Below are positions 14,168 to 58,068 of a stretch of 64,000 bases of DNA, piece by piece. Position 1 is the stretch's first letter; each line of letters starts with the position of its first letter. The notes beneath the pieces are model-generated. The model made no database searches. It saw only the letters and a program-made list of their open reading frames with translations, and had not been told where the DNA came from. The DNA lies in the NCBI GenBank assembly GCA_044226015.1, contig JBGAHS010000010.1, positions 1 through 64,000 on the forward strand, read 5' to 3'. The stretch is from Candidatus Obscuribacteraceae bacterium. GTDB lineage: Bacteria; Cyanobacteriota; Vampirovibrionia; Obscuribacterales; Obscuribacteraceae. The position numbers and the translations under genes were made by a program.

Positions 14168-14263
14168 AATTTTCCAAGCGCTATCGGTTCGAGTTTGGGA
14201 AAATCTGCGAGGCATTTGGAGCGGAGAGTATGAAAATGCCAAGCGCTATCAGTTCGCGTTTTT
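14168..14263. repeat. Doublet of the ~28-bp REP-like palindrome
   Basis: AAGCGCTATC(G/A)GTTCG cores at 14176 and 14241, 65 bp apart. Confidence 0.8.
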
Positions 14264-14333
14264 CTTCGCGCTCATATGCGCGGCGGGCGTTTGGGGGATG
14301 CGACTTGCTTTAACTTTCGCCCCAAAAAACATT

Positions 14334-14362
14334 GGAGTAGGCACTGATTAGGTGCCTACTCC
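14334..14362. other. Perfect 11-bp hairpin between convergent genes, possible terminator
   Basis: GGAGTAGGCAC-TGATTAG-GTGCCTACTCC. Confidence 0.55.
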
Positions 14363-14658
14363 GTTGCGCTCCCACGCAAAATCGGATATCTCAATGCGAC
14401 TTGAGAGTTTTAGTAAGGAGTTAAACCGATATGGTTTGAAGTACCATATTTGAAATCTCTGAACGCAACAGAACACATGAAGCGAACAGCACTGATGCGC
14501 AGCAGAACACATGATGCGCGTCAAGGATGCGACACAGCAGAACACATGATGTGTAGCGAGAACTTGTTTATAAGACTCATCATTGTCCAATCTGGTTCCT
14601 TGAATCAGATTGGACAATTTTGAGCTGGTGGTGTCTGGCTAGAACCGAGATAACTGAG

Positions 14659-15024
14659 CTATAGAGCAGGTTTTGGTGAGCCGATTTCAGTTATTTCAAA
14701 GTTCTCGTAGAGTGCCAGTTCTTCGTACATGTATTCGAGCTGCCGATCGATTTTTAGTTCGCGCGGTCTGTAAACTTGTTCATTTGTGTTTACGAGCCAA
14801 CGAGCTTTGCTCGATCGCTGCCCTTTTCTCTCTTTTTCGAGTTGCTTCATCTCCAGGCAATTCATCATGTCCAGTTTCTTGCCGCCTTGTTCTACGAGGG
14901 TGTATTTCTGTTCTAATTCAGCTTCTGCTGCGGCTTCTTCTCTGGCTCTTTCAAGCGATTGAATCAAGCGTCTCGCTTTGGAGACCTTTTTTTTGACGAA
15001 CAACCCAATACTGTGGATCTTCAT
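14659..15024 (-). CDS. Hypothetical charged/coiled-coil protein
   Basis: 121-aa ORF with an ATG start and helical composition. Confidence 0.55.
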   Translation of the reverse strand: MKIHSIGLFVKKKVSKARRLIQSLERAREEAAAEAELEQKYTLVEQGGKKLDMMNCLEMKQLEKERKGQRSSKARWLVNTNEQVYRPRELKIDRQLEYMYEELALYENFEITEIGSPKPAL

Positions 15025-15186
15025 AATACTTTCCGTGGTGACGAAATTTCGGATAATTCCGAGCTGGACTTAATGCCAACATTCTCATCGTGCACGACGA
15101 GATTCCAACAACACAATTGGAACTCGTAAAAAAAGTATGCATTGTTTTTGTGACGCATTTTAATAGCGCTGAGTCATATCCAAGTT

Positions 15187-15420
15187 GCTCAGTTATCCCG
15201 AGTAGAACAGCTCAGTCATCCCGAGTAGAACAGCTCAGTCATCCCGAGCAAATCAGCACAGCTAGTCATACCGAGTAAATCAGCACAGCTCAGTCATCCC
15301 GAGTAAATCAGCACAGCTCAGTCATACCGAGTAAATCAGCACAGCTCAGTCATCCCGAGCAAATCAGCACAGCTCAGTCATCCCGAGTAAATCAGCACGC
15401 TCAGTTATCCGAGTAGAGCA
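15187..15420. repeat. Tandem array of nine 23-28-bp units
   Basis: GCTCAGTCATCCCGAGTAAATCAGCACA-type units starting at 15187, 15210, 15233, 15261, 15288, 15316, 15344, 15372 and 15399. Confidence 0.92.
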
Positions 15421-15516
15421 ACTCGTGTTGCTCCGGATCCCGAGGGATTCAGCTCACGCAGCTTCAACGAAGCTGCAAATGTGAAAGATCTTGCACAAGT
15501 GGAGGTGTTAACTTAA

Positions 15517-18450: not shown

Positions 18451-18485
18451 ATATCTTTCTATGCTCTCAGAAACCTGTAAGCATC

Positions 18486-18834
18486 AAAACGCGAAGCGAT
18501 AGCGGTTGGCGTTTAAGAGGATTATGTGCGTGCGAGCGCTTGGGAACGCAAAACGCGAAGCGATAGCGGTTGGCGTTTAAGAGGTTTATCTGTGTGCGAG
18601 CGCTTGGGAACGCAAAACGCGAAGCGATAGCTGTTGGCGTTTGCGAGGATTATGTGTGTGCGAGCGCTTGGGAACGCAAAACGCGAAACGATAGCGGTTG
18701 GCGTTTAAGAGGATTATGTGTGTGCGAGCGCTTGGGAACGCAAAACGCGAAGCGATAGCGGTTGGCGTTTAAGAGGATTATGTGTGTGCGAGCGCTTGGG
18801 AACGCAAAACGCGAAGCGATAGCGGTTCGCGTAT
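18486..18834. repeat. 64-bp tandem array (five units plus a terminal palindrome) built on the REP-like element
   Basis: Units start at 18486, 18550, 18614, 18678, 18742 and 18806; each is AAAACGCGAAGCGATAGCGGTTGGCGTTT plus a near-identical 35-bp linker. Confidence 0.95.
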
Positions 18835-18844
18835 CGATCAAATA

Positions 18845-21800
18845 TTATGCCAGTAAAGATGAACTGGAACTTGTGGATGGCGAGAATTCGGCGCCGTCCT
18901 TTAGGGCTATTGTGTTGTTTGTGGTTGCTGGCGTTCTCTTGCCTGGCACAATGATTCCAATGAGATTTAGGGGATCAGCTGCAGATAGGTGAATCAGATC
19001 GGATTGCACCACTGGTGATTTGTTCCGTGAATGGCGCAGCGATTCGACTGCTTCCGCAAGTGCGAACTGTTCTCCCATGAAGCCGCTGACGAATCGTCCA
19101 CCGCGAATTTCTCCTCGGTCTTCCAATCGCCTGAATGCGATTAGTAATTCTCTCCATTTCGGGATAATGCTTTCTCTTGCAAGTACATCTCGCATTACAA
19201 CGCCATATCGACGCAAGAGGACCCAGCAAATGGCTTCGTGCTGACGTGCCTTTTCGACGGCATCGACATAAAGCAATGACCAGCGCCCCGTGCTATATCG
19301 TGGCATTGACATTTTTGCTCTTCCCTGACCTGAGCGACGTTTCGGATCAATCAGCGCCCTTAGATTGTCAAATCCATCAGCTGTGACTAGTCCCGCTGCT
19401 ACCAACTCCCAGAGCGCATTTTCGATTTCTGATTGCAGTCGATTTGTTCCTCGCTGAATATCAGCAAAAAAGGAAGCACCACGTTGTTTCAAGAACTCTT
19501 TTACAGCGATCGCTTCGTTGCTCAAGCCTTTATTATCTTCAAACATCGAACCTGGATGAATTGCGGGAAGCCAATCACAATCTTCCCTTATATAGAAGGT
19601 TATGGGCGCAACGCTGGTTGGAATCACACGCCAATTTTTGCTGCTTGCCTCTCCGGTGTTCTCTTGCATTGTGGCTGGATGCGGGGAGATGCGTCCCCAA
19701 CCAATTCGTCCAGTTAGGCAGAGTTTGTCCAGAACATCGGGCTTATAGTCTTTTAGTCGTTTGCGCAAAACAAATTGCTCCCAAGCATTTGCTGGAAGTT
19801 CTATGCCCTGCAATTGTTTTATAACCTCGAGAGTGCTTCTCTCGTCGCCAGGTAGTTGTGTACCTGCCGCTACATGTTGCCAATGCAGAAGCCAATTCAT
19901 GTAATGCGCCGGCGAAACAGCCTCAATGCCCTTACGAAGCACGGCTACAGTCAATTTGTGTATTCGCGCAAGAAGTCTTCGGTCGCACCATTCAAGAACT
20001 TTTCTCTTGTAGGCATCGGGTCTGAACTCGCCTCGAAGAACCGCTCCACTGGATTCGATTCGAATTAAAGCGAAGTCTAAATCTGAGGACGCAAGCTCGA
20101 ATAAATCTACGAGTTCGGGGACCGTGGTCGGTCCTAGATGCGATAGCCAGCCTTGAAGGAGAACCATAATCACATCTTCTCTGGTAAGCGGCTCGCCTTT
20201 CAATGCCTGAACTGGCTTAAGTTCGTTGAGGAGCTTAATTTCCGGGTAGAGCAGTTTGACGGATTCTTTTCTTTCTGCTGATAGCCAGATGATTTTTGAT
20301 TTTCCTGGGCTGGAGCCATCGCATGTTTCGACCACATCCGCATCCGCACCGCATGCGACCACATCCGCATCCGCACCGCATGCGACCGCATCCGCAGCGC
20401 TTGCATCTGCATTCGCACCGCTTGCATCTGCATCCGCATTGCTTGCGACCGCATCCGCGTTTTCATTCCCAGAGTTTTGTGTATCCGGAGCACGAGTAGG
20501 AATCTCGGCTCTAGCTGCTCTGCCGCGGCTAGCAAGTTCTTCGAAAAAATGCCGCCAGGTCGCTGGGATCTTATTCATGTCCTCCGGAATCACAACAAGT
20601 GTTTGCAGAAGGTCGTGCAATTCATCGCAATCGCGTAAATCAGGCCATGCTTCCTCTTGTACTTGAGCGATAGCCGCGGGCTCCAGGCTGGCAACGTCCT
20701 TCAATCTGTCAGGCATGACACGGCGCAACTCGACTGCGCGCGCTCTTCGCTCTTCCAACGGAGCATCATCTAAATACGCGTACGGGTTCGAATTCAAAAT
20801 TTCATGCGCAAAAGCAGAAGGAATCGGTGTGTCTACCGCAAGACATCGAATCTTTCCAGCGTTTATGCTTTTGAGAATTTCCGTCAATCCCTCAAGATCC
20901 ATTGCTTCTGTTAGAACATCTTTCATCACCTCGTTGACGAGTGGATGATCGGGCATTTCAATATCGCCCTCTATGTTGTCCTGACAGGCAGCAGCTTGAG
21001 GAAAAACAGCTGCCAACAAATCGTCGCTCTTTAGTCTTTGCAGATGTGGTGGCACTTTTTTGCCGCCCTGAAAACGGAGCAGGGCAAGCGAGCGATTAGC
21101 ATCCCAGCGAAATCTCGTTGTGAAAATGGGTGATGCAAGCGATGCCTGCTCTAACACATGTTTGACCGATTCTGCGCTCAGAAAACTAAAAACGTCTGCC
21201 AGAGGAAAGCTGTGTTGCTCGCCCAGTGAAATATTCAATCCGTTGTCGGTTGCTGCTGCCTGAAGCTCGAAGTTGAAGGACCTGCAAAAGCACTTCCTCA
21301 GAGCAAGGCCCCAAGCTTTGTTGATTCGCGCACCAAACGGCGCGTGGATTATCAGCTGCATGCCTCCGCCTTCATCAAAGAATCTTTCTGCGATGATGGT
21401 ATCTTGCGAGGGAATTGCGCCCAGTACTGCTTTTGCTTCTAGAACGTATTCTATGGCTTGTTCCGCGCCCGATTTGTCCAGACCATAAAGCTCGTTCAAT
21501 TTTTCCACAAGTGCATTCTTGCGTTCTTTTTCGTCAGCAATTTCTTCAGCTGCCATAAAATCAGCGATAAATTCGCGAATTTTGCCGACCTGGAGCGAGA
21601 GTTCAGGTGTGCGCCCAGGCGCCTCGCCTTTCCAGAATGGAATTGTCGGAGCCGCTCCATGGGCATCTTCGACAAGGACTCGCCCGCGCGATTGTTCCAC
21701 CCGATGGATCCGCCAGGACGCATTGCCAAGCAAGAATATATCTCCTCGTGAACTCTCCACTGCAAACTCTTCGTCGATGGTACCAATTGTGGTTTCTTCT

Positions 21801-30402: not shown

Positions 30403-30504
30403 GCGCTTGAAGAAAAACGCGAGCCGATGGCGCTCGGAGAAAAACGCGAACCGATAGCGCTTGAAGAAAAACGCGAACCGATAGCGCTCGGAATTTTCGC
30501 GTAT
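30403..30504. repeat. 27-bp tandem array of the REP-like element
   Basis: GAAAAACGCGA(A/G)CCGAT(A/G)GCGCT units at 30412, 30439 and 30466. Confidence 0.88.
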
Positions 30505-43337: not shown

Positions 43338-46300
43338 GTGAACATGTTAAATGAAGGAACTCTGCACAGAGCGACTCCCGTCTGGGCAACAGTGTTGGCT
43401 ATCGCCACGGGACAGCTATTCTCGCTGGGTGCGGAAGCTCAAGGCGTTCGCCCTGGGACGATGCAGCCAACGCAAAATAACGCTGCAGCGAGTTCCGGGT
43501 CGTCTGCGCTCAAAGATTTCAATCTCGCAGCAACAGTGCCCATCGTCCATGCAACAAAATCGGGAACAATACAAATTGGTGGCACTGTATCAAATGGTGT
43601 CATTTCTGGTGGCGTGCCACTAAACATAATTGCGGGTCAGGCTTTAACTCCAGCTATGAATGCCGCACTCTGGCAAACGGCAACGCACGGTACGCAGAAT
43701 CTTCAGCTCAATTCTTCAGGCGCTGCGATGGCTGGTTCTGCAACCTTGAACTCTTCATGGGCTGCAAATCTTACTTCGCTGGTGGTACCAAAAGGAGTCA
43801 CTGTCAACGCCATCAATTTCACAGCATCAAGCCCTCTCAATGTTGCAAATGCAGCAGATATTTCGGGGTCTGTTTACGCTTTGCAGTCTCATCCAGGAAT
43901 GACAGCTGCTCTGAATTTCAACAGCGATTTGCATCTCGGTGCAGGCGGGCTGCTTTCCACAAATCTTCCGGCAAACTCCAATCTGGCTGGGCTTTATTCC
44001 TCGCAAAATCTAACACTGAGTGTGGGCGGCAACCTTGTTAATCAAGGACGCATTGACGTAGCGGGAACTCTCTCGGCAACTGTATCCGGCACTATCAGCA
44101 ATGTCTCTGCTGGCTCGTCCCTTGCGTCGCTAGTTGCACAAAATATAAATCTCACAAGTGGAACTGGAACAATCATCAACTCTGGTTTAATTAGTGCGTT
44201 GAACTCATTGAATATTGATTCTCCGGACCCGGCTGTCGATCTGAATATTTCAAATGCTGGCGGTGTCTTGCAGGCTATAGGCACACGTAATCCGCTCACT
44301 GGTCTTTTAGAGGGCGGAGCTCTAAATATTAGGGCCGATGGTGCAGCCGTTGAGGCTGCAAATGTTCGAGTTTTAGACGGGCAATTGCGAGCAAATGATG
44401 GAATAAATGTCTTTGGCAAAAACATAAACATGTTCACTGACATGATTGATGGAAGAGTCAACATAAAGGGCTCTGCTGCTCATCTTGGCGTTGCAAATGG
44501 CGAGCTTATTTTGGGCGATCAAATCTTGAGCGGTGACCCAACATATTCAAATGCCAATGGCAATATTGTCATTGATGGAACTTTCACCACTTCTTCCGCA
44601 AACCCTGACCTCGCGATAATTGCTGGTGGCAACATCACAGATACAAATTCCGGTTTGCCATTTGGGCTGAATTCCACTAACGGTGGCTCGCTGCTCTTAG
44701 CCGCTGGTGTTTCTGGGATAAGCGCCAATTTAGTCAATGACACAACGACGACTATTCTTTTCGTTACCACGCCCAATACAACAACCGGCGGTGGTAGCAT
44801 TATTTTCAGTGGCATGCTCAAGAATGGAATAAACACTTCAAGCGCGGGCAACGGTGGCAACGTCACCTTACTTGCGCTTCAGGGTACTAATCCAACAGCC
44901 GGTCGTATTGATCTTCAATCTGGTGGGATCAATGTTAGTGGCAGTGGCTCCAACAATAATGGCAATGTGACTATCATTGCTAATGCTGCCGCCGGAAGTT
45001 CTGCAATTCAAAACATAGGACCCATTAATGCGTTCGGAACTGGAAGCGGAAGTGTTGTTATAAGTGCTTCCGCTCCCGCATTCGGCCCTGTAGTTGTTAA
45101 GAATGGCGCCATCACAGCCGGTACCATAACAGCCAGTTCTCTGTCTGGTGGTTCCATCAGTGTTGGCGGTGATATCAACTCGACAGGTAGTGTCAAAGTA
45201 CAGTCTAATGGACCCATCAGTGTACAGAACATAGGTTTGTCTAACAGCCCTTCAACAGTCCAAATTCTTTCGTTCGGCGACACTGTTTCTGCAAAATCCA
45301 TAAATAGTACCGGTGCTATTTCGGTCGGAACGATTGCTTCAAAGGGTGTGACTCTCACCGGAAATTTGACCTCACTAACTGGTGACATTAGCGTCGTCTC
45401 GGGCTCTGGAGGAATTGATGCTTCCTCTAGTTCCGTCACTACTGCAGGCTCCGTAATAGTTAGCTCTGACTCAGGTGATGTCAGCATTGGGACAATCAAC
45501 AACTCTACAAGCACTAGTTTCGCCCCAGTAAATGTTGTTTCATCAACGGGTAAGACTACAGTCGGTGCCATCAACAGTGCTGGTGGTGCCGTGTTAATCG
45601 GGAATGCTTTTACTGCTAGCACGGGAGTTGTGCTCAACGGTGACATTGTGAACACCAAGGCTGGTACTGGTGGCGTGGTGACGGTTGGCACTGCAACTGG
45701 CGGTATAGCTGGTGCAGGTCGCAGCATCACCACTGATGGTGCCGTCACAATCCTAGCCGTGAGTACCAGCTCCAGTGGTGATGTCGCCATTGGTGACATC
45801 TTCAATGCACCCGGTAAATCCGCGACAGTTCAGATTGATGCAAGTTCGGGAAAGGTCACAGTTGGAAACGTTGTAAGCGCTAGCTCTGTGAGGCTTGGCA
45901 ATATTAAAACGGGACGAGGCGTTGTATTGAATGGTGATATTTTAGCTGGCGATTCGGGATTTGGAGTCACAATCTACACGAGTACTGGAGGCATCGCCGG
46001 CAAAGGTCACAGCGTTACAGCAACAGGACCGGTCGAGATCATTGCTTCCGATACCAACAGCAGCGGTGCTATCAACATCGGTGCTTTGAATAATATTTCT
46101 GGTTCTGGCGACGTCTTAGTTGCTTCGAGTTCTGGTTCACAAACTGTTGGAGCAATTAACAGCAATGGACAGGTCACTGTCGGTGCGACTAGCAGCACCG
46201 GGGTCACACTAACTGGGGATATCAACTCAAGCAGCCTCCAGGGAGTGTCTGTCACGACTGGCACTGGTGGCATAGACGGCTCCGGCGCCAGTATAAATTC

Positions 46301-49300
46301 GAGCGGTGGCGTTTCCGTTTTAGCATTAAGTACCACCACTAGCGGTGCAGTAAGTGTTGCTAACGTCAGCGCTCTCAATGGAGACATATTCTTAAATTCT
46401 GCGTCGGGAACAGTTAAGGCCGCAGCTCTCTACGCAAGTGGCAACATTACGATTGGTGGAAATTCAACAGCAGGAATAACATTAACTGGAAATATTCAAT
46501 CGCTCGGCAATAGTGGCGTTCAAATTCTAACTGGCAGTGGAGGAATTTCGGGCGCTAATGCAAACATAAATGCAAAAGGAAATGTGTCGCTTTTTGCACT
46601 TAATAGCACTGCAAGTGGTCCTGTGAGCTTCGGTTCTATAGTCAGCCAGGGGGCAGCTGGTGTTTCGCTAACTTCGCAGACAGATACTATGACTGTTGGC
46701 TCCATCACCGCGAAAGGACAGGTCAGCATTGGAAGTTCTAGTTCTGCTGGTCTCACATTGAATGGAAATATACAAAGTGGTGGCATCAATGGAGTGCAGA
46801 TTGTTACTGGAACTGGCGGTATTTCAGCTGGAAATGCAAGCATTCAAGCCTCCGGTCCAGTATCAGTTCAAGCGCTGGATAAAACCATCAGTGGGAATCT
46901 AGCGATTGGAAAAATTGTAAGCAGTGGCGGCGCGTTTGATGTTAGCATCAGTTCGGCGAGTGGGTCCGTGAGCTCTGGCGGCGTGAATAGTTCCGGCAAT
47001 GTCTCTATTGGAAATTCTGGCACTGCAGGAGTAATTTTAACTGGGACGATTATCAGCGGTGGCTCTCTGGGAGTTTCAATCACAACGGCAACCGGAGGCG
47101 TTTCTGCATCAGGTCAGGATATAAACGCAGCGGGGTCCATTAGTCTATTTGCGCTGGATAAGTCAAGTAGCGGTTCCATCAGTGTAGGCAACTTGAACAA
47201 TATTCAAAGTGGCAGTGGAAATGTTCAGGTTTTTGCAGCAAGCGGGTCAATTCAAACTGCAGGAGTTTTGAGTGCTGGCAGTGTAACTATTGGAAGCACC
47301 GGAAGTAAGGGAATCAATATATTAGGAGATATCGTCAGCGGTTCAGCCACGGGAGTTAGTATCACCACTGGTTCTGGCGGCATTAACGCTTCGGGGCGAA
47401 CTATCACTGCTGCCGGTCCCGTGCAGGTTGTTGCAACTGAGAAAAACACAAGTGGCTCGGTTAGTGTTGGGAAAATAGATGCATCAGCTGCTGTCTCTGC
47501 GGCTGCTGTCTTAATAAATGCTCAGGGTGGTTCTGTAGGCTCAGGCGGGGTTGTCACCGCAGGGGATGTGTCCATAGGCTCAAACAACAGCAGCTCAGTT
47601 TCGCTTATTGGTGATGTGAATTCCCAGGGGACAAACGGTGTCACCATTCTTGCGGACTCCGGAGCCATTTCAACCGCTGGTGTCAAAATTAACGCTGATG
47701 CAGGCGTCTTCATAGGCATAAACAAGGGTACTGTGAACGTGGGCGGCATCACCGCTGGTGGTGATGTTAATATCGGTAATTCTTTCAGCGGCACGGGAGT
47801 GACTCTTTCTGGCGATATCACCAGTGGTGGCGCAGCTGGCGTCAGCATAGGCACTGCTACGGGTGGCATCAGCGGACCCAGCGCTAACATTAATGCTACA
47901 GGTCCTGTTTCAATAATAAGTACGGACTTCAACAATAGTGGCAATCTCAGCTTGGGTTCGATAAGTTCTGGGGCAAGCGTCCAGCTCAGTGCTTCATCAG
48001 GAACGATAAAGAGCGGCTCCATTTTCGCAGCTGGGGATATCTCTATTGGCAATACAGGCGGTGCAAAGGGAATTACCGTAAACGGATCCATTACAAGTCA
48101 GGGACTCAATGGGGTCGTAATTAATACATTCACGGGCGGTATAGTAGTTGGTGCTGACATTAGTTCTGCTGGGCAGGTTGTTGTTGCTGCATTGTCGAAC
48201 ACCAATAGTGGAGCCGTCACTGTAGGGGCAATCACTAATAACGCGGCGGTACAAATAGACTCGTCGTCTGGCACTGTGACTAGCGGAAGCATTACGAGCT
48301 CAGGTGATGTTAGTTTGGGTAATCTTAAAGGCGCGAAAGGCGTATTCATAAATGGCGACATATACAGCACTGGTTCCAACGGAATCCAGATTTCTACAAG
48401 TAGCGGTGGCGTAGATGGCAGCAATGCAAATATTTCTGCAACGGCTTCGGTCTCGGTTCTTGCATCTGCCAACCTCAACAGCGGCGCGATAAAAATCGGC
48501 AGCATTTCCGCGTCAGGCACTAATTCATCCATACAAATTGATTCTTCAAGCGGAACTGTTAGTGCAGGTAGCCTGAACGCTGTTGGCAATGTTTCGGTTG
48601 GAAACATCACCAACGGGAAGGGAATCACTTTGAATGGTGATATCAGTGCTGGGCTTAGCGGCGTAAATGTATTTACTGGCAGCGGCGGCATCGCTGGAAG
48701 CAAATCAAACATTGTTGCAACTGGTCCTGTGTCTATTCTCGCGTCCGACAGTTTCAACAGTGGCTCCGTTGCCATAGGTTCTGTCAGCACGACTGGAGCT
48801 AAGTCAGATGTGCAAATCGTCTCCCAATCTGATTCCGTAACCGCCGGCGCTATCGATGCGGACGGCAACCTTTCTGTAAGAAGCATCAGTGGCAAGGGTG
48901 TCACACTACTGGGAAATGTAAGCAGCAATGGACTTGCAGGTGTGATTATCACAACTGGAACTGGAGGCATAGCAGCTGCAAATTCTTCAATAAATGGGAC
49001 AGGACCTGTTGTTGTTTCCACGGCCGACTCAATAAATAGTGGTGCCATTAATGTTGGCCCAATCATAAGTAATGGCACCGTAACACTCGATTCGAAAAGC
49101 GGTACCATTAGTTCCGCCGGCATCCAGAGCGGTGGTGCTGTTACCATAGGGAATTCAATTTCAGGAAAAGCCGTAAATATTACTGGCGTGGTGACTAACG
49201 TCCTGGGGACTGGTGACATTAGCATCAGCACCGGCAATGGTGCCATCAGCAGTAGCGCTGACATCATTGCAGCGGGTGCCCTCAATGTTACAGCAATAGG

Positions 49301-52300
49301 TAGCGTATCGATTAGCGGGATGGCAGCTTCGCAAAAATCTGACATCACTATAATCGGGCAGTCAGGCTTCGGATTAAATGCAGTATCGCTGGGCGATTTA
49401 AGTGCAACTGGTGCAATCACGGTGACGGCTAACGGTGGTGGCAACCTCGCAATTAATGCGACAACGGTTCAGTCCGGAAAATCCGCAACGTTTTCGGCAA
49501 CTTCCGTTGGAGCCGTTAATTTCAATGGCGGTTCTATGAACTCTGTCGATTCTTTAACGTTTAATGCTGGTGCTGTCAATATCGGTGCTTTCTCTGCTGT
49601 TAGTGCGAGCAACGGTCCAATAACTTTTAATTCCGATCGCGTAAGCATCGGATTGTTGGCGACCGTAACAGCTCCGCAAATCAACTTCAATGGACAAACC
49701 CTTGATGGAACAGTTGCAGCTAATTCCAACATGTCGCTAAGCAACTCTGGAACTGTTCAGTCTACGAACGGAGACATAACCATTGCTTCCGCTGCAGGCC
49801 AGGATTTAAAATTGACTGGAAATGGTACTGGAAAATTTGTGGCGCCGACTTCAACGCTAATCAATAATACAGCTACTGTCTCAGGTACGCGACCCACTCC
49901 AGCAATGATTCTTGGACCCGGTAACCAGGAATTCGTTGTTGGTGATGGTTTAAGTCCAGGCGGATCCGTTGCATTTAATGCGGGATCAATCACGATTAAC
50001 CCTGGCGTGAACTATTTGTTCAGCAATGATTTCAGTTCTGTTCAATTGAATACCAGCAAACTGAGTGGCAATCCGGCTCAGTTTGTAATTCATCCAAATG
50101 GTGGCAACCCTAACTCGAAAATTACCGTCGTCTCTACTGGTGGTGGCACGATAGCGAACAGTGCAGGACCTGTCAATCTCGGATCTTTTGATTTGAATTT
50201 TAGCGGTCCGCTAACGATAATTTCTTCGTCCGATATAGTCTCTGCTGGACCTTTGACCATTCGCCTGTCGGGGACAGGGGCAGACATTAATCTGATTGCT
50301 GGTTTTGATTTCTTGCCTGCTACATCGGGGCAAGAAGGTCCTGATTCAAAAACACGATTGGTGAGTGGTATTAGCACTGGTGGCTCTATAAGCCTTGGCT
50401 TGGTGAACATTCAGGCAGACAGCTTTGGGGCTGGAAACATTTTTGCAGTTGCTGGAAATGGTACTGTCTCTGGGACTGGCGCGATCTCTCTAGGCTCTTT
50501 GAGTTCTGGTGGAACCCAGGGCTCAGGAGGCAATGTACGTTTGCTAGGAACTACGATTTCGGTGGGTGCTATCGACACCAGAGGACCTGGGGGCGCTGGC
50601 TCAGTCATTGTACAAGCGGCTAATACGATCTTCGGTGGTGGCATCATTACTGCAGGACAACTCAGTGGCTCCTTTGTCGGTACAGGTGTTGGCGGTGCTG
50701 TCAATGTATCTGATATTCAAGCTGGAACTAACAGCGTAAGTTTGACTGGGCAAACGGTGAGTTCATCCGGAACTATTAGTGCTGGAGCTCTCACTGTACA
50801 GGCGTTTTCTACTGTGAATCTGCCAAGTACACAGATTGGAAAATTTACTGTGTCAACCGCCGGAGCTGTCACCATCAACAACAATGGAAATCTCATACTC
50901 AATTCAGTTAGCTCACGCGGATTAACTTTGCAAAATGCAGGAAATGTTACGCTCGCTGGAGCCCTCACAAATACAGGTTTAACCCCTGTCAGCCTCATCC
51001 TGAGTTCCGGCACGTTTTCTAACAATGGAAATGTGCTGAGCAATGTCTCAGGTGATGTGAATATCACTGCTGACGATATCAACTTGACTGGCAGTATTTC
51101 TATTGCTGGACAAAAGGTTGTTCTGCAACCGTATACGAGTACCCTGCCAATCGTCATTGGCACAAAAACGGGACCCGCACTGGCAATATCAAATTCCGCT
51201 ATTTCAAGTCTTGTCGGTCAAATAACTATCGGTTCCAAGAATTCAACTGGAGGGATAAGTGTCAACTCTCCGTTGACTCAGTCGAATACCATTATCTTGA
51301 ATTTAGTGCAGGGTGCGGTCAATGGAACCGCGTTTGCACAAAATGCTGCAATAAACCTTACCGGAGCTGGAAGCATTCTCTCGGTAAAAGCTGATTCAGG
51401 CACTCTCAATGTTGGTGCTGTCAGCAATACCACTGGATTCGTCAGCTTTACCACTGATGGCGTCGGAAGTAGCATAGTTTTGACAGGGGGATTCCCCGCT
51501 GCCCATGGCATCACACTTGATGCCAAAACTGGTACCCTTTCAGGTTTGCCTCAAAGTCCGGCGCTTATTACTCCGCTTAGAGACGCAAGTGGCAATGGTG
51601 GAACTCTCTTCTTGAGCGCTTCCAATCTTGCAAGTCAAAACCTTAACGTTGATGTTAGTGGAACGGGCACTGGTGATGGTGGCTTGTTCTCTTACAATAA
51701 TTATTCAACGTCGACTTTCAATCTAAGTTCTGCAGACTTGCAGGTGAATGCCAGCGGCGTCAACGCTGGCACAATCGGCATCAGCAGCAGTGGGAACCTC
51801 ACCATCAATACCAGCGGTATGTTCAATTCTGGTGCGACTGGTTCTGGTGTAAATAAAGGACGCGGAGCCACGTTTAACTTCTTAGCCGGATCTTCAGCAG
51901 CAGGCAACTTGCAGATCATTGGCAGCTTGAATGCTAATGGAGTTGGCACAGATGGTCAGGGGGGCAGTATAACTCTCAGATCTAACAGCCCAACAGCATT
52001 TAATATTGGCTCTACTGCGGCTTCCAATACCAACGGTATAAAAGGAACGCTGACCGTGTTTGGTTCTGGAGCTTCCGACGGAAGCATCTCAGTGTACAAC
52101 AAGGGTGGCGGAATTATCAGTTCCACTCAGGCACTCACTGCTGTTAGGACTCTCATATTCGACACATCTGGAGCTAGTGCTGGCACCATCACCATTGGCA
52201 AGGCTCTCGGAAGCAGTTCGACCGATTCAATTACCCTCACCGCTGGTGGTACCGGTACCATTTTGCCGGGAGCTAATCTCATAACAGGCAGCACCGTATC

Positions 52301-54839
52301 GTTGAGAAGTAATAGCGGCTCAATCACCGCTAATGTCAACACTTCGAACCTGTCGGTTAACACTGGTGGCAGCGCTGCTGTATCTGTCACGAATTCGCGC
52401 CCAGGTTTACTGACCTTAAGTGCATCATCTGCCGGTGGCAACTTTACCGTGAAAAACACTGCAGCCAATAGTGGAATAAGCGTTGCAGGCAGTATCGTCT
52501 CGGCAAATCTCAGCAATGGCGTCGTGTCACTCACGGCTAGCGGAACAGGCACCGTCACCGATGCCAACGTATCTGGCACTGATTTCATACAAGGCGCCAC
52601 TGTTAAGTTGACTACGGGAACCGGATCTGCCGGCATCGGCACCGGCACACTGAAGGCTGACGCCGTCCGAGTCAAAGCCAGCAGCCTGGCACTCAGCACT
52701 CCGGGAGTTATGAACATTGATAATCTCGGTTTAAATGCCGGCACGCTTACGATAACGGCTGCAAATCCTAGCTCTACTTTCAGCTTGCGTTCCACTACTG
52801 CAGTAGCGATTACTCCTGCTCTCTCGAACGCAAAGGCTGTAATAATTGATACCAGTTCTGGTGCCGGTGCAATATCGTGGAAGAGCACCGTCGGAAACAG
52901 CAAAACTGAAAGCATAGACTTAATCACCAGCTCTGGATCTATTTCCGGTGCTGGTGTGCTGTCAGCTAACAACAGTGGAACTGGGGTTCGATTCATAACG
53001 AGTACTGGAAGTATTGGTACTAGTACGGCTGCTGTCAAAACGAACAGTCCAATCCTCAACGTGCAGACAAGCAATAGTGCCTTGATCAATCTCTCAGATT
53101 CGTTCACTGGTGGTATCAGTGTGAATTCAGCACTCAGTTCCTCTACTGGTAGCATTACCTATGTAGGATCAAGCAAGACTACTTTTACTGGTGACATAAG
53201 TGCCTTGAATGCCGTCAACATCAAGACTACTGTCGGTGGTGCCTCGTTCGGTGGAAACATAACAGGTAGTCAGGTCATTATCACAAGCGCCTCGAGCACT
53301 GATTTTGCTGCATCGAAGAACGTTAGCGCTTTGAATGGACCCATAACCGTCACACAGATCGCTGGACTCATGACGATAGGCGCTGGTGCTAAGTTCAGTT
53401 CTAGTTCATCTGGTCCGACTGCAAAAATCACGTTGCAAGAAAAGGCAAATGCAACTGGAGCTGGTATCACTATCGGTGACGGCGCTCAACTGGTCACGAA
53501 CGCTGGAGGAGTTAAAGGTGGCACTGGTGGGCAGATTATTGTTGTTGTCGGCGCTACTCTACCTGCCAAAGTCGCTGGGACGCAACCTTCTAATGTGACG
53601 GTAGATTTGTCCCAAGCCACGAACCCCGCAGTCAACAAAGTCTATTGGGGAACTAACTCCAGCAAGATATTAACTCCTGGTTCAAATGTGAACAAGCTTG
53701 CCATCATAGGTGATACCGCGATTCAATTCAGTGCGGGGTCGATTGCACCCATAACGCTTGCAGGTAATACGCAGATCACAGCAGACCCACCAGTCGCGGC
53801 TCTCGTTTCCTTGCCGATAATTGCGACCGGAGCCAGAACTTTGAGTTTGTCTCCTAGTGTTGGAAGCGTAAGCGCTGTAAATGCTGCAAGTTCTTCCGGT
53901 TCTGAATTCTCTAGTAATTCGAGCCTCAGACCATCTGTTCCACCTTTCCTGGTAGTGGATGCTAACCGCATTTCTTCTTACTCCTTAAACCAGAACATTG
54001 CGTCGATTGCGGCGTTTGGAAAAGCAATTGCTACTGCAAGCCAGGCGGATAGTTTTGACAGCTTCTCTATCTCAAGTAGGTCTGCGTTGCAATCGAACTC
54101 TTCTGAGCCAAGAGTGCTTCAGGGCGGCGTGACTGAAACCGGAAGTCCTGCTGAGACCGGAGGATTCGCTCAAACCGGAGGATTCGCTCAAACCGGAAGA
54201 TCCGCTCAAGCTGCAGGATTCGCTCAAGCTGCAAGATTCGTTCAAACTGCAGGATTCGCTCGAACTGCGTCAGTTTCTCCAGATCCGCAGGTAATTAACC
54301 AGGCTCCCAGAAAGCAAATAACGATGAACGAGGGAAGTGCTGTGTTCGCGTCTCGATGCGCCACTATAGTCTCTACCCCATTTGGAAATGTCGAGATTGA
54401 GCCAGATTCCCTCGCAATGATGTATGTTTCGAGTTCCTGTCTCAGTGTTTTCAATCTAGACGATTCGCATCGCGATTCAATTGTCGTCCGAGTTGCTGGT
54501 GGCGCGATAAAGCTGGAGCCAGGGCAGCACTTAAGCATCTCCAACAATGGTGCCAAATCGTTCGATGTGGTCAACCCAGTGGAATCGATTGGCTATCGTA
54601 AGGTAAGTGATGCCGAGCTGGCTGGCGGACTGAGAGTGTTCCGCGCGGAGTTTTCCGTTCCTTCAGCCATAAGCGCCATACAACCTTTGAAGCAACTCTT
54701 GAACACAAAATCCGCACAGGGGCTGAAATTGCGCAATCACTTGCTCAAAACATATGCGGCATTGAATCAAATGAAGCCTGGGCGTGAACGCTTCCAGCAA
54801 TATATGAACCCAAGAATGGCGGCTTTTGCTCAGCCATAG
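43338..54839 (+). CDS. Giant (3833-aa) Gly/Ser/Thr-rich beta-helix, haemagglutinin-like exoprotein
   Basis: Signal-like N-terminus ending AEA, many imperfect GxVxI / TGGI / ASSG repeats and a distinct ~170-aa globular C-terminal domain. Confidence 0.85.
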   Translation: MNMLNEGTLHRATPVWATVLAIATGQLFSLGAEAQGVRPGTMQPTQNNAAASSGSSALKDFNLAATVPIVHATKSGTIQIGGTVSNGVISGGVPLNIIAGQALTPAMNAALWQTATHGTQNLQLNSSGAAMAGSATLNSSWAANLTSLVVPKGVTVNAINFTASSPLNVANAADISGSVYALQSHPGMTAALNFNSDLHLGAGGLLSTNLPANSNLAGLYSSQNLTLSVGGNLVNQGRIDVAGTLSATVSGTISNVSAGSSLASLVAQNINLTSGTGTIINSGLISALNSLNIDSPDPAVDLNISNAGGVLQAIGTRNPLTGLLEGGALNIRADGAAVEAANVRVLDGQLRANDGINVFGKNINMFTDMIDGRVNIKGSAAHLGVANGELILGDQILSGDPTYSNANGNIVIDGTFTTSSANPDLAIIAGGNITDTNSGLPFGLNSTNGGSLLLAAGVSGISANLVNDTTTTILFVTTPNTTTGGGSIIFSGMLKNGINTSSAGNGGNVTLLALQGTNPTAGRIDLQSGGINVSGSGSNNNGNVTIIANAAAGSSAIQNIGPINAFGTGSGSVVISASAPAFGPVVVKNGAITAGTITASSLSGGSISVGGDINSTGSVKVQSNGPISVQNIGLSNSPSTVQILSFGDTVSAKSINSTGAISVGTIASKGVTLTGNLTSLTGDISVVSGSGGIDASSSSVTTAGSVIVSSDSGDVSIGTINNSTSTSFAPVNVVSSTGKTTVGAINSAGGAVLIGNAFTASTGVVLNGDIVNTKAGTGGVVTVGTATGGIAGAGRSITTDGAVTILAVSTSSSGDVAIGDIFNAPGKSATVQIDASSGKVTVGNVVSASSVRLGNIKTGRGVVLNGDILAGDSGFGVTIYTSTGGIAGKGHSVTATGPVEIIASDTNSSGAINIGALNNISGSGDVLVASSSGSQTVGAINSNGQVTVGATSSTGVTLTGDINSSSLQGVSVTTGTGGIDGSGASINSSGGVSVLALSTTTSGAVSVANVSALNGDIFLNSASGTVKAAALYASGNITIGGNSTAGITLTGNIQSLGNSGVQILTGSGGISGANANINAKGNVSLFALNSTASGPVSFGSIVSQGAAGVSLTSQTDTMTVGSITAKGQVSIGSSSSAGLTLNGNIQSGGINGVQIVTGTGGISAGNASIQASGPVSVQALDKTISGNLAIGKIVSSGGAFDVSISSASGSVSSGGVNSSGNVSIGNSGTAGVILTGTIISGGSLGVSITTATGGVSASGQDINAAGSISLFALDKSSSGSISVGNLNNIQSGSGNVQVFAASGSIQTAGVLSAGSVTIGSTGSKGINILGDIVSGSATGVSITTGSGGINASGRTITAAGPVQVVATEKNTSGSVSVGKIDASAAVSAAAVLINAQGGSVGSGGVVTAGDVSIGSNNSSSVSLIGDVNSQGTNGVTILADSGAISTAGVKINADAGVFIGINKGTVNVGGITAGGDVNIGNSFSGTGVTLSGDITSGGAAGVSIGTATGGISGPSANINATGPVSIISTDFNNSGNLSLGSISSGASVQLSASSGTIKSGSIFAAGDISIGNTGGAKGITVNGSITSQGLNGVVINTFTGGIVVGADISSAGQVVVAALSNTNSGAVTVGAITNNAAVQIDSSSGTVTSGSITSSGDVSLGNLKGAKGVFINGDIYSTGSNGIQISTSSGGVDGSNANISATASVSVLASANLNSGAIKIGSISASGTNSSIQIDSSSGTVSAGSLNAVGNVSVGNITNGKGITLNGDISAGLSGVNVFTGSGGIAGSKSNIVATGPVSILASDSFNSGSVAIGSVSTTGAKSDVQIVSQSDSVTAGAIDADGNLSVRSISGKGVTLLGNVSSNGLAGVIITTGTGGIAAANSSINGTGPVVVSTADSINSGAINVGPIISNGTVTLDSKSGTISSAGIQSGGAVTIGNSISGKAVNITGVVTNVLGTGDISISTGNGAISSSADIIAAGALNVTAIGSVSISGMAASQKSDITIIGQSGFGLNAVSLGDLSATGAITVTANGGGNLAINATTVQSGKSATFSATSVGAVNFNGGSMNSVDSLTFNAGAVNIGAFSAVSASNGPITFNSDRVSIGLLATVTAPQINFNGQTLDGTVAANSNMSLSNSGTVQSTNGDITIASAAGQDLKLTGNGTGKFVAPTSTLINNTATVSGTRPTPAMILGPGNQEFVVGDGLSPGGSVAFNAGSITINPGVNYLFSNDFSSVQLNTSKLSGNPAQFVIHPNGGNPNSKITVVSTGGGTIANSAGPVNLGSFDLNFSGPLTIISSSDIVSAGPLTIRLSGTGADINLIAGFDFLPATSGQEGPDSKTRLVSGISTGGSISLGLVNIQADSFGAGNIFAVAGNGTVSGTGAISLGSLSSGGTQGSGGNVRLLGTTISVGAIDTRGPGGAGSVIVQAANTIFGGGIITAGQLSGSFVGTGVGGAVNVSDIQAGTNSVSLTGQTVSSSGTISAGALTVQAFSTVNLPSTQIGKFTVSTAGAVTINNNGNLILNSVSSRGLTLQNAGNVTLAGALTNTGLTPVSLILSSGTFSNNGNVLSNVSGDVNITADDINLTGSISIAGQKVVLQPYTSTLPIVIGTKTGPALAISNSAISSLVGQITIGSKNSTGGISVNSPLTQSNTIILNLVQGAVNGTAFAQNAAINLTGAGSILSVKADSGTLNVGAVSNTTGFVSFTTDGVGSSIVLTGGFPAAHGITLDAKTGTLSGLPQSPALITPLRDASGNGGTLFLSASNLASQNLNVDVSGTGTGDGGLFSYNNYSTSTFNLSSADLQVNASGVNAGTIGISSSGNLTINTSGMFNSGATGSGVNKGRGATFNFLAGSSAAGNLQIIGSLNANGVGTDGQGGSITLRSNSPTAFNIGSTAASNTNGIKGTLTVFGSGASDGSISVYNKGGGIISSTQALTAVRTLIFDTSGASAGTITIGKALGSSSTDSITLTAGGTGTILPGANLITGSTVSLRSNSGSITANVNTSNLSVNTGGSAAVSVTNSRPGLLTLSASSAGGNFTVKNTAANSGISVAGSIVSANLSNGVVSLTASGTGTVTDANVSGTDFIQGATVKLTTGTGSAGIGTGTLKADAVRVKASSLALSTPGVMNIDNLGLNAGTLTITAANPSSTFSLRSTTAVAITPALSNAKAVIIDTSSGAGAISWKSTVGNSKTESIDLITSSGSISGAGVLSANNSGTGVRFITSTGSIGTSTAAVKTNSPILNVQTSNSALINLSDSFTGGISVNSALSSSTGSITYVGSSKTTFTGDISALNAVNIKTTVGGASFGGNITGSQVIITSASSTDFAASKNVSALNGPITVTQIAGLMTIGAGAKFSSSSSGPTAKITLQEKANATGAGITIGDGAQLVTNAGGVKGGTGGQIIVVVGATLPAKVAGTQPSNVTVDLSQATNPAVNKVYWGTNSSKILTPGSNVNKLAIIGDTAIQFSAGSIAPITLAGNTQITADPPVAALVSLPIIATGARTLSLSPSVGSVSAVNAASSSGSEFSSNSSLRPSVPPFLVVDANRISSYSLNQNIASIAAFGKAIATASQADSFDSFSISSRSALQSNSSEPRVLQGGVTETGSPAETGGFAQTGGFAQTGRSAQAAGFAQAARFVQTAGFARTASVSPDPQVINQAPRKQITMNEGSAVFASRCATIVSTPFGNVEIEPDSLAMMYVSSSCLSVFNLDDSHRDSIVVRVAGGAIKLEPGQHLSISNNGAKSFDVVNPVESIGYRKVSDAELAGGLRVFRAEFSVPSAISAIQPLKQLLNTKSAQGLKLRNHLLKTYAALNQMKPGRERFQQYMNPRMAAFAQP

Positions 54840-54879: not shown

Positions 54880-55275
54880 TGGTCGAATTTTCCCCTCGTT
54901 AGGTCAATTTTGCCCATCCTGGATCGAAGCTGCCGAATCGTGGGTCGAAGCAGCCCTCACGCGGATCGAAGCAGCCGAATCGTGGGTCGAAGCAGCCCTC
55001 ACGCGGATTGAAGCAGCCCTCACGCGGATCGAAGCAGCCCTCACGCGGATCGAAGCAGTCCCCCTCGTAGGTCGAAGCTGCCACATTGTGGGTCGAAGCT
55101 GCCCCATCGCGGATCGAAGCTGCCCCCTCTTAGGTCGAAGCTGCCACATTGTGGGTCGAAGCTCTCACATTGCGGATCGAAGCTGCCACATCGCGGATCG
55201 AAGCTGCCCCATCGCGGATCGAAGTTGCCACATCGTGGATCGAAGCTGCCTCATCGTGGGTCGAAGTTGCCTGTA
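54880..55275. repeat. 21-bp tandem array, about 19 units
   Basis: GG(A/G)TCGAAGC(A/T)GCC core plus a variable 7-nt tail; 17 clear units from 54921 and two degenerate units before them. Confidence 0.92.
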
Positions 55276-55691
55276 ATAAAAGTTGGTAACTTGCTGAAAC
55301 TGTGGCGGTTTGCAGGCGATTCGGTTAGCATCTATATGTAGCGCATCCAACGCATTGATTTCGGATATGTCCGACTGGTGCGATGGAGCGTGGAATGAGA
55401 ATCGTTGGTTTGCTGACAATTCAGACGTGTCAATAGGCAATGATGCCTTCCTGGTATCCAAATCTGGAAAATTTGTACCCAGAAATGTTCTTCAACTCTA
55501 ACTTGGATGCGTCCGGAAAAGGTTGTTAGATAAGGGTTTGGAGTCAAGTCATGGGAAGACTACGCTAAGTTTAGGCTCGTTTAATTAGCCTTAAGCTCGT
55601 AAGGGTGGCAAACTTATTCTCATAAATGTCAATATGACTTTCTCGAAGCGTGTGAAGCTTTGAAGATATCGTCAAAAATCCCGCGAGGTAT

Positions 55692-56567
55692 GTGATGGCT
55701 GACCGCAGAAACGATGCAAAAACTCCACTTACAGGAATTAGTGGAAGAGAATCTGTGTTCGACAAGAGATTGAGAGAGTTCCGCAATACAGGCTCTTTCC
55801 AAAAGCCGCAGCCAAAGTCTCTAATCTTTAATAAGAAGCAAGCGGCAGATTTCGAAACGCCGTCAATGGATTCAAAATTGCGTCCTAAAACTAGCGAGAA
55901 TGAAGAAATCACGGAAATCGAAAGACTCGCATTTTACGACGAAGCAAGTGGGCTCCTGAATACTCGCACAACCTTGGGCAAACTCGCTCAAGAAATTCGT
56001 CGCTCAGGACGTTACAAACATAGTTTCTGTCTTTTCATTGTTGAACTCGATGGTTACGCCAATGAAGATGGACTGACACCGCTAGCTAAAGAAATGCTAT
56101 TCGCTGATTTTTGCAAGGTAATGCGAAAGAGTATTCGAGAAGTAGATATCATCGGTAGATTCGATGATCCTTCTGTTTTAGTTATCTGTCCCGAAACCAC
56201 TCTTGGTGATGCGGTGATCGAAGCCGAACGCCTCAAGAGCACCATTTCAAGCACTCATTTCAAGCGCGTCAGCAGCCATGCAGCAATGACCGTTTCGATA
56301 GGAATTTCATGCTACCCAGAACACGGAACAACTCCGGTAGAAATTCTCGGCTCTGCCCTTGAAGCAGCTCAACAGGCTGTTTCTTACGGTGGAAATGCAA
56401 TTGCGGCTGCCAAAGCTGAAGTTGCTGCGGCTGAGGAAGTCAAGCCACTGGTCGATTTCAGCCCAGAACTGGATGCCACTCCACCTCAAGTCGATATGTC
56501 TCCAAGCAAGGCTGCGGCAAACGAGATGGCGTTTGTGACACCGGAAGTATCAACCGTCATCAAGTAG
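55692..56567 (+). CDS. GGDEF-domain protein with degenerate active site
   Basis: AFYDEASGLLN, IREVDIIGRFDDPSV in place of GRxGGDEF, and TVSIGISCYP. Confidence 0.88.
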   Translation: MMADRRNDAKTPLTGISGRESVFDKRLREFRNTGSFQKPQPKSLIFNKKQAADFETPSMDSKLRPKTSENEEITEIERLAFYDEASGLLNTRTTLGKLAQEIRRSGRYKHSFCLFIVELDGYANEDGLTPLAKEMLFADFCKVMRKSIREVDIIGRFDDPSVLVICPETTLGDAVIEAERLKSTISSTHFKRVSSHAAMTVSIGISCYPEHGTTPVEILGSALEAAQQAVSYGGNAIAAAKAEVAAAEEVKPLVDFSPELDATPPQVDMSPSKAAANEMAFVTPEVSTVIK

Positions 56568-56593
56568 ATCGGAAAATCTGACTAAACCTTTCG

Positions 56594-56619
56594 GGGCAGC
56601 TTCGGCTGCCCTTTCTTTT
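56594..56619 (+). terminator. Intrinsic terminator
   Basis: GGGCAGC-TTCG-GCTGCCC followed by TTTCTTTT. Confidence 0.88.
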
Positions 56620-56820
56620 GTTCCGGGAAGCATTTGCTTCTTATGGGCTTCTTTTCTTACGGGAAGTCGAGAAAGCATTTGCTTCTTATGGGATTCTTTT
56701 GTTCCGGGAGTCGGGAAGCATTTGCTTCTTAGGGGCTTCTTTTGTTCCGGGAAGTCGAGAAGCATTTGCTTCTTAGGGGCTTCTTTTGTTCCGGGAAGTC
56801 GAGAAAGCATTTGCTTCTTA
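56613..56820. repeat. ~44-bp tandem array, five units
   Basis: TTCTTTTGTTCCGGGAAGTCGAGAAAGCATTTGCTTCTTAGGGGC-type units. Confidence 0.9.
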
Positions 56821-57039
56821 TCATTCCGGTGAGTCCGCGGCGGGCTTGGTCAGTTTTATGTAGCGCTTCCTACAATTTTGGTGCTTAGCGAGCTTTCTTG
56901 TGGACTTGCCTCCGGGGATGGGGATTGCTCGGTCTTTCGCAGGTTCCCTTGAAATTCGCTCTCATTCATTCTGTGCAGCAAAAGCACTTTTTCTTGAGCT
57001 CTGTTAGACTTTAATGCTGCAGTTCGTTTGGGAGGATCC

Positions 57040-58032
57040 ATGGCGAGGATTGTTAGATTCGAAAAGACTGGTGGCGCTGACGTTTTGAAAATCATGGAAG
57101 AGGAGCCGGCGGCTCTTGCAGAAAATGAAGTGCGCATAAAGGTCGAAGCCGTTGGACTAAACAGAGCCGAAGTCTTGTTTCGACAGGGGTTGTATCTGGA
57201 AAAACCTTCTTTGCCGTCGCGAATTGGTTATGAAGCTGCTGGAACAGTAGAAGCTGTTGGTTCAAAAGTCGAAGGCTGTAAGGTTGGCGACAAAGTAAGC
57301 ACTATTCCTGCGTTCAAGATGAGTAAATACGGCGTGTATGGCGATTCATGCGTGGTGCCTGAGTACGCTGTTGCGCATTATCCGGAGAATTTGAGTGTTG
57401 CTGAAGCTTGCTCGATTTGGATGCAGTATCTCACCGCATACGGTGCCCTGTGCGAGTTGGCAAAGATGAGTTCTACTGATTACGTTGTAATCACGGCAGC
57501 TAGCAGCAGCGTTGGTTATGCAGCAATTGAACTTTGCAGAGCGTTCGGAGCCACAGCAATTGCCACTACCAGAGGACCTGAAAAGAAACAATTATTGTTG
57601 GATGCAGGCGCCCATCACGTGATTGTCACGAATGAAGAAGACCTTGTTGGCAAAGTGATGGACATCACAAATGGAAAAGGAGCTTCGATTTTGTTTGACG
57701 CTGTTGCTGGACCAATGCTGACCCAGTTGGCAAAGGCAGCTGCGTACGGTGCGACGATATTCGAGTATGGAGCATTGAGTCTCGATGTCACACCATTCCC
57801 ATTGATGCTCAGTCTTGATAAATATCTGACTGTCAAAGGCTATACGCTATTTCAGATGAATCAGAATCCCGAATATCAACGACGCGCTGTCCGATACATT
57901 CATGAAGCACTCAAAAGCGGTCAGCTCAAACCGAAGGTTGATAAGGTGTTTGATTCGATTGAACAAATCGCTGAGTCGCACAGATATATGGAATCGAATC
58001 AGCAAAACGGAAAGATTGTTGTGAAGATTTGA
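57040..58032 (+). CDS. NADPH:quinone oxidoreductase (zeta-crystallin-like MDR)
   Basis: VEAVGLNRAE, GYEAAGTVEAVG, ITAASSSVG and GKIVV motifs; GGAGG RBS. Confidence 0.92.
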   Translation: MARIVRFEKTGGADVLKIMEEEPAALAENEVRIKVEAVGLNRAEVLFRQGLYLEKPSLPSRIGYEAAGTVEAVGSKVEGCKVGDKVSTIPAFKMSKYGVYGDSCVVPEYAVAHYPENLSVAEACSIWMQYLTAYGALCELAKMSSTDYVVITAASSSVGYAAIELCRAFGATAIATTRGPEKKQLLLDAGAHHVIVTNEEDLVGKVMDITNGKGASILFDAVAGPMLTQLAKAAAYGATIFEYGALSLDVTPFPLMLSLDKYLTVKGYTLFQMNQNPEYQRRAVRYIHEALKSGQLKPKVDKVFDSIEQIAESHRYMESNQQNGKIVVKI

Positions 58033-58068
58033 AGTTCTGCGATAGCGCTTGGAGAAAAACGCGAAGTA

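Follow-up and report, generated by a model that had tools for sequence, protein, structure and literature searches.

What is a 28-bp palindrome that recurs between the genes of one stretch of a bacterial chromosome, and how did it come to be repeated there? The question arises in the first 64,000 nucleotides of contig JBGAHS010000010.1 (GenBank assembly GCA_044226015.1) from a Candidatus Obscuribacteraceae bacterium. We call this whole stretch the window; it corresponds to C4:1-64000 of the source genome, G000 (8.19 Mb in 13 contigs, 92% complete), and other G-numbers denote comparison genomes. A first-pass annotation had placed the palindrome at six intergenic loci, all of which we recovered as described, and had proposed a lineage-specific, non-autonomous element that carries locus-specific linkers and amplifies locally. 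That proposal is supported, and no published description of the element was found. We found that the 28-mer is one regional variant of a genome-wide palindrome and is confined to a field of ~112 kb around a dedicated gene derived from IS1595. The gene escaped the first-pass annotation because it lies outside the window.

The whole of G000 was scanned with the 25-nucleotide consensus of that annotation at up to four mismatches, with the reversed genome as a control, which gave 90 distinct sites versus none in the control. Eighty-eight of the 90 lie in C4:14-126 kb, at 15 loci, and the remaining two comprise one site on C8 and one weak site on C9. The repeat is therefore real and regionally confined. 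Other frequent words in G000 are likewise palindromic and regional, and have the common core A-N-CG-N-TA-N-CG-N-T; with AA/TT flanks, this pattern has 122 matches with a TA centre versus 0-4 with each of five other centres. A profile search of the genome returned 402 copies, a few of them probably false, which make up 30 single sites, 14 doubles and 56 arrays (100 loci in all). The modal periods are close to 28, 51 and 64-69 bp, the last at 23 of 70 multi-copy loci. The wider family has many copies beyond the window and 64-69 bp as a modal period; the window's own variant keeps to its ~112-kb field. The outer arms at the 100 loci are symmetric and show no conserved foot, in agreement with the earlier remark that a GTAG foot is missing. 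Convergent gaps are favoured, accounting for 29 of 62 classifiable loci compared with 650 of 3,457 gaps genome-wide (38 loci overlapping crude open reading frame (ORF) calls were left out).

Family relatives carry the canonical form AACCGATATCGGTT, and G017 contains hybrids of this form with the CGCGAA arm of the window. The canonical pattern had no match in 300 other genomes of the phylum. Among 80 loci listed from all species, titles read Obscuribacterales, Melainabacteria or unclassified/cyanobacterial metagenome-assembled genome, the exceptions being one Lachnospiraceae and one Chloroflexota. Viral contigs gave no palindrome match, and a phage site was rejected on that ground. A conserved chromosomal domain was also rejected, as the field of G013 is partly syntenic with G000 C8:200-243 kb, where there is no copy. 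The window region is syntenic in four congeners in which the palindrome is absent, with no core match in 54 kb of G007 and one chance-like core match each in the syntenic regions of G002 and G003. Comparison with empty sites, as the first-pass annotation had proposed, yields orthologous regions that are free of the palindrome and too diverged to define insertion ends.

When the proteins encoded beside the palindrome were compared in seven relatives, one family recurred in five genomes. G000 holds exactly eight paralogues of this partner gene, each within one palindrome field. The gene of the C4 field (G000:C4:83722-85305, minus strand, 527 aa) is found 20 kb past the end of the window and is predicted to encode an IS1595 shell without the DDE core plus a DprA-type winged helix; two palindromes sit ~80-120 bp downstream of it and a promoter-like motif ~55 bp upstream. 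A copy occurs within 1 kb of the gene midpoint at seven of the eight paralogues. Under a strict, profile-free palindrome definition that gives 77 loci, 49 lie within 60 kb of a gene, compared with a mean of 7.9 and a maximum of 33 in 20,000 random placements. Locus density per 100 kb is 6.3 at 1-25 kb from a gene, 4.0 at 25-50 kb, 1.2 at 50-100 kb and ~0.45 at 100-400 kb. On the closed chromosome of G337, 14 of 37 copies lie in 2339-2411 kb around one gene, and 15 of the 37 are within 50 kb of any of its four genes (2.8 expected, p=0.02).

We compared 24 family genomes, which are Obscuribacterales-type Melainabacteria and thus kin rather than independent samples. The canonical palindrome is present in 16 of the 17 with a full-length gene and in none of the seven without it, two of which are less than 70% complete; the single gene-bearing genome that lacks the canonical palindrome carries a variant upstream of its gene. 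The palindrome of the relatives is located ~90-240 bp upstream of the gene, in clear or nearly clear form at 12 of 13 loci and degenerate at one, whereas the gene-adjacent copies of G000 are downstream. At the G007 gene (L093), the palindrome in the usual upstream position has another centre (CCGAATTCGG), so not every palindrome has the central TA.

Palindrome variants follow the fields: 57 of 67 loci are closest to their own location-defined field versus 10.6 after shuffling, and several of the 10 misassigned loci belong to the fields of two sister genes, which match each other, or are scattered C1-type copies. The sister paralogues at C7:474765 and C11:213139 have a GTTAAC-core variant in common, and their 3' flank homology stops at the far arm of the palindrome. 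In a quick tree (8 of 29 relatives' loci left out, no reading frame having been found), the eight G000 paralogues form one clade with support 100, as do four copies of G001, two of G006 and two of G024; the gene expansions are lineage-specific. The genes flanking the partner gene differ between lineages, and in two relatives it lies between genes that are adjacent in G000.

Judged from its sequence, the protein is a former IS1595 transposase that lacks the cutting core and has gained a winged helix that resembles the C-terminus of host DprA most closely. An hhalign comparison with an intact IS1595 transposase (probability 99%, E 6e-18) aligned the N- and C-termini and not the catalytic core. 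PF12760 was matched by two homologues, and PF12762 (IS1595 DDE) had no match in G000, G001 or G013. Where intact transposases have the DDE core, this family has the motif [KR]RSxETPAxxHPxxE, which is invariant, together with an acidic linker and the winged helix. Four cysteines, R55, the [KR]RSxETPAxxHPxxE motif and SRKYxQ are near-invariant in 156 sequences, in which E158 is the sole acidic residue conserved above 95%. The predicted model (predicted local distance difference test score 82) is mostly helical, without an RNase H-type sheet, and fold searches with it matched the winged helix alone. PF17782 (DprA_WH) scored above the cut-off in all six relatives' proteins. When the family profile was run against 5,821 called ORFs, the best non-family match was residues 310-376 of host DprA (E 3e-20), and host DprA C-termini were matched at E 1e-21 to 1e-24. 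Up to 34 of 62 winged-helix residues are identical to the host DprA C-terminus, the LTMLELxG helix is retained and the consensus is nearly the same. At least 620 clusters (50% identity) score E<=1e-30 to the family. All eight G000 ORFs are intact; synonymous sites are saturated in the five pairs tested, with a proportion of nonsynonymous differences (pN) of 0.22-0.40. No terminal inverted repeats or target duplication were visible around the genes, for which candidate empty sites are strongly diverged.

The DprA-like domain suggests a link to natural transformation. In Vibrio and Helicobacter, the DprA winged helix binds and loads the ComM helicase, and the interface residues L350, E353 and L354 matter, with E353Q tolerated (PMC12012524). 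By their spacing, we infer that these residues map onto the LTMLEL helix of the family, and the winged helix likely hooks host ComM, the DNA-uptake helicase. YraN is described as a relaxed-specificity nicking nuclease that works with ComM (PMC13663708). G000 encodes comM, dprA and yraN, as well as a second, shorter DprA-family gene at G000:C2:37484-38104 (328-aa frame) besides the chromosomal dprA on C4. The motif TGAACT-N15-DCGTH, which may be a promoter of the extracytoplasmic function (ECF) type, has 88 matches in G000 at spacing 15, whereas every other spacing between 12 and 18 gives 35-53; 35 matches lie upstream of ORFs. It precedes all eight paralogues, comM, yraN, a radC-like gene, xseA, sbcC, dnaB, dnaE, nrdA and the integrase gene of the window. 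In looser form it stands before comM in 17 of 19 genomes of the family, two of three of the sister family and none of eight others, and before yraN in 3 of 3 and dprA in 0 of 5 cases, with a background of 2.7% of all ORFs. Across the family, the conserved form TGAACT-N15-ACGTT may mark a DNA-metabolism regulon, made up of the genes from comM to nrdA in the above list.

The palindromes themselves bear traces of copying. At 16 of 18 gene-adjacent loci in relatives, the two arms match perfectly over 15-32 bp while their outer halves are found at that locus alone, so one arm was likely copied onto the other. Arm length has a median of 16.5 upstream of genes (n=10) versus 10 elsewhere (n=70). Half-sites reassort in many pairings, one being paired with 17 others, and whole palindrome-linker units recur in either orientation at neighbouring loci 5-20 kb apart. 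In the C4 field, linker similarity drops weakly with distance (rho -0.31, 66 non-independent pairs), and the core is near-invariant while the linkers diverge. The arrays have ragged ends that do not coincide with a fixed point of the unit; no clean empty site was obtained. In a near-identical strain from another study, available as contigs only, the doublet at 14168 is kept and the differences lie directly beside two arrays: 23 additional bases follow 18832-18848, and the left flank of the 30403 array is replaced.

The window holds positions 14168-64000 of the C4 field (no strand assigned), which continues to C4:126 kb. The doublet at 14168-14261 (minus strand, copies 65 bp apart) begins 1 bp past the stop codon of the ORF at 13499-14167. 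A tandem array of six palindromes with a period of 64 bp (18485-18832, plus strand) lies between the M1 aminopeptidase gene and the Lhr helicase gene, a junction at which the core match is absent in three congeners. Three bare palindromes with a period of 27 bp (30403-30495, plus strand) have two tRNA genes alongside and a lone half-site at 30561, and a further tandem array (33125-33448, plus strand) has five palindromes with a period of 74 bp. The second doublet (38095-38188, minus strand, copies 65 bp apart) has a unit that resembles the 65-69-bp unit of the family's other fields. A permuted fragment without the palindrome centre (core, right arm, next left arm) lies between two convergent genes at 58039-58066 on the plus strand. 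The asymmetric core of the two doublets is on the strand opposite to that of the arrays. Their linkers had been called related; the named motifs are common to both, but just 12 of 37 positions match ungapped. The emphasis on ~65-bp spacing is likewise borne out in part, since both doublets are exactly 65 bp apart and resemble the commonest (64-69-bp) unit of the wider family, but a period of 64-65 bp occurs at only 3 of 14 multi-copy loci of the window variant. Periods in the C4 region are 27, 28, 46, 55-58, 64-65, 74, 82 and 105 bp, and mean linker identity within the two long window arrays is 94% and 97%.

We are much surer that palindrome and gene are associated than of any mechanism. What we observed are fields with a gene at or near the centre, a domain swap in its protein, a motif shared with comM and yraN, gene expansions and empty orthologous regions. 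We propose, with a probability of about 0.5, that the 28-mer is the binding site of the field gene's protein, which would recruit ComM and YraN to copy pieces of the palindrome nearby. The protein, made when the uptake-recombination genes are on, would bind the palindrome as a dimer through the zinc ribbon and helix-turn-helix of the transposase, and its DprA-type winged helix would bring in ComM and YraN from the host. With nicking and branch migration borrowed in this way, one arm could be copied onto the other, which would homogenize the arms, and arms could also be swapped between copies. The palindrome and some flank would move into nearby intergenic gaps in hops of ~5-20 kb, and ordinary slippage or recombination between two direct copies would then grow tandem arrays; host slippage has been proposed as a source of tandem copies of REPINs (PMC8049555). 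Occasionally the gene and its adjacent palindrome may relocate and found a new field, whose variant would drift with the gene. A broader reading, which we offer tentatively and at somewhat below even odds, is a new class of selfish element, in which a transposase that gave up its own core would hijack ComM-YraN via a captured DprA hook and place copies of its recognition palindrome in the 50-100 kb around it, protein and site evolving together. The chromosome would thereby be split into private domains, one per paralogue, and recombination with incoming DNA would be biased in favour of the element.

Several observations weigh against this proposal. The C4 paralogue is the most diverged of the eight and has no Pfam match at E<=1e-4, and in four of the eight paralogues Q replaces the helix's conserved E. 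No catalytic domain is recognised in the protein, so that the enzyme step is taken to be borrowed, and no insertion ends or target duplications are definable, the congeners being too diverged. The motif is missing from dprA itself (0 of 5) and also precedes dnaB, dnaE and nrdA, and may thus mark a general DNA-metabolism regulon. The fields are not strict: 12 of 77 loci are on gene-less contigs, although five of these sit at C10:0-11 kb, which may adjoin the C11 field, and the C1 field is scattered over 700 kb. G337 has gene-less clusters as well as a gene (3558 kb) without a canonical copy nearby. G001 has 10 genes but just 11 canonical palindromes, which indicates that spread is not obligatory. 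Finally, outward hopping from a founder copy gives an equal decay with distance, with or without action of the protein in cis.

Two alternatives account for much of the same evidence. The protein on its palindromes could act as a shield or domain marker that hooks ComM and stalls or diverts it, which would keep kin DNA that enters the cell from overwriting the neighbourhood of the gene; copies would then arise by host accidents and be retained near the gene since only linked sites protect. The ComM hook, the shared promoter motif, purifying selection and the distance decay fit such a shield equally well, the near-invariant core despite diverging linkers agrees with it and no catalytic domain is needed. 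By itself, however, it leaves unexplained the perfect arms with unique outer halves, the reassortment of arms and the joint movement of palindrome and linker between loci, and we regard it as the main rival, possible but doubtful. The palindromes could also hop by themselves through host repair of cruciforms (SbcCD cleavage, template switching or LigD end joining), with the gene supplying the founder copy and its protein being an autoregulatory repressor. This keeps its standing because it predicts the same distance decay. It agrees with the position of the palindrome beside the promoter motif upstream of the gene in relatives, with the presence of sbcC and a LigD primase-polymerase gene in G000, with linkers common to neighbouring loci as expected of stepwise hops, and with the preference for convergent gaps. 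We consider it unlikely, as the gene-adjacent copies of G000 lie at the downstream side and not near the promoter, a conserved DprA-type helix would be superfluous in a repressor and none of the seven gene-less genomes has copies.

The remaining two explanations are contradicted by the data. The first-pass annotation had likened the ~28 + 36 bp geometry to CRISPR or RNA-processing repeat-spacer units, and this geometry does occur at three window loci and recurs in the 64-69-bp period of the wider family. However, linkers within arrays are 89-100% identical, field periods range from 27 to 105 bp, Rfam gave no match besides two tRNAs and Cas1 (PF01867) had no match in G000 (Cas6 was not searched for), nor in G002, G013 or G024; such a reading is very improbable. 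An origin of the copies as multicopy single-stranded DNA (msDNA) from a retron within the C4 field (C4:68585-69463) appears equally remote. A reverse transcriptase with a folded upstream RNA does lie inside the field, followed by a degenerate array, but its non-coding RNA lacks the palindrome core, the repeat does not match the msd, the same reverse transcriptase is at the orthologous place in G007 where there are no copies, and other fields are without such a full reverse transcriptase. The retron itself (G000:C4:68430-69463; L034:1200-2244) consists of a folded msr-msd-like RNA (z -3.0) and a 292-aa reverse transcriptase, and is located downstream of the LigD primase-polymerase gene and convergent with an ADP-ribosylglycohydrolase gene.

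Repetitive extragenic palindromes (REPs) are distributed genome-wide, unlike the G000 copies, which form fields of ~20-700 kb around a gene. REP/REPIN/BIME elements with their RAYT (TnpA-REP) transposases are nonetheless the nearest known system (PMC3733652, PMC8049555, PMC3333891). In both, the palindromes are short and intergenic and go with a dedicated gene derived from a transposase, and a genome has several such gene-repeat pairs; doublets, linkers, local tandem amplification and a preference for convergent gaps are also common to the two. In contrast, the G000 palindrome has no GTAG/CGTC foot and is a near-perfect dyad with a central TA, the partner is IS1595-derived without a catalytic core, and the partner gene has multiplied within lineages, whereas RAYT genes are reported not to copy themselves. 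A RAYT/IS200-like or GIY-YIG gene among the copies had been suggested as a possible partner. The RAYT/HUH Y1 transposase (PF01797) had no match in the 92% complete G000, and GIY-YIG had two, the small one at C8:399 kb without a nearby copy. The likeness to the IS1595 family (PF12760, PF12762, NF033547) extends to a zinc ribbon, helix-turn-helix and C-terminal helices that align over the whole length, and to copies at unrelated positions per lineage, but the DDE core is absent and terminal repeats and target duplication were not found. That the palindrome represents two fused IS1595 ends was rejected, as the ends of intact IS1595 copies from G012 and G024 look different from it. With the DprA C-terminal winged helix, the domain that recruits ComM (PMC12012524), the protein shares sequence identity and the LTMLELxG helix; it differs in that the winged helix is fused to a site-specific-type DNA-binding shell rather than a Rossmann domain binding single-stranded DNA, and in being multi-copy.

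The parS/ParB and matS/MatP pairs are chromosome-domain marker systems, and they resemble the present one in having a dyad site concentrated in one region and a candidate binding protein. They differ from it in that G000-type fields are non-orthologous in relatives and that a genome has several of them, every one with a gene and a variant of its own. No description of the gene-palindrome system was found in the literature searched, and subscription journals or supplements may hold one. By its sequence, the system is set apart by a REP-RAYT-like working without the RAYT enzyme and foot, and by descent from IS1595 without the DDE domain. New here are eight coexisting fields in one genome with distinguishable variants that track the gene tree, the downstream placement and the formation of arrays.

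Other repeats and genes lie in and around the window. Intergenic minisatellites with small hairpins (15207-15415 and 56627-56820; 28-bp and 44-bp units) are each single-locus and lack the family core, and further minisatellites occur at 54913-55271, 61652-61805 and 62538-62952 (21, 35/54 and 20 bp). Unrelated minisatellites also occur in the equivalent region of congeners, which suggests that the lineage is generally repeat-prone. The word ACCCAATTTTCGTATG belongs to a longer repeat with 23 loci, found only on contig C11 (G000:C11:81-1287 kb). A 3,833-aa ORF at 43338-54839 has short glycine-rich repeats and is adhesin-like by appearance. At 23998-26334, an RHS-repeat protein is encoded beside an integrase, in a stretch hardly covered by the related strain's contigs. 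The integrase, a tyrosine integrase with an arm-binding domain (26787-28097), has the comM-type promoter-like motif ~108 bp upstream, and its stretch is rearranged in those contigs.

The origin and spread of short bacterial palindromic repeats, REPs included, are an open question. The eight gene-repeat pairs, each with its own field and variant, constitute a natural experiment on protein-site specificity, range in cis and dependence on comM and yraN. If the ComM hook is functional, this would be a mobile-element protein that plugs into natural transformation rather than disrupting comM, and would provide a route to site-specific loading of a branch-migration helicase.

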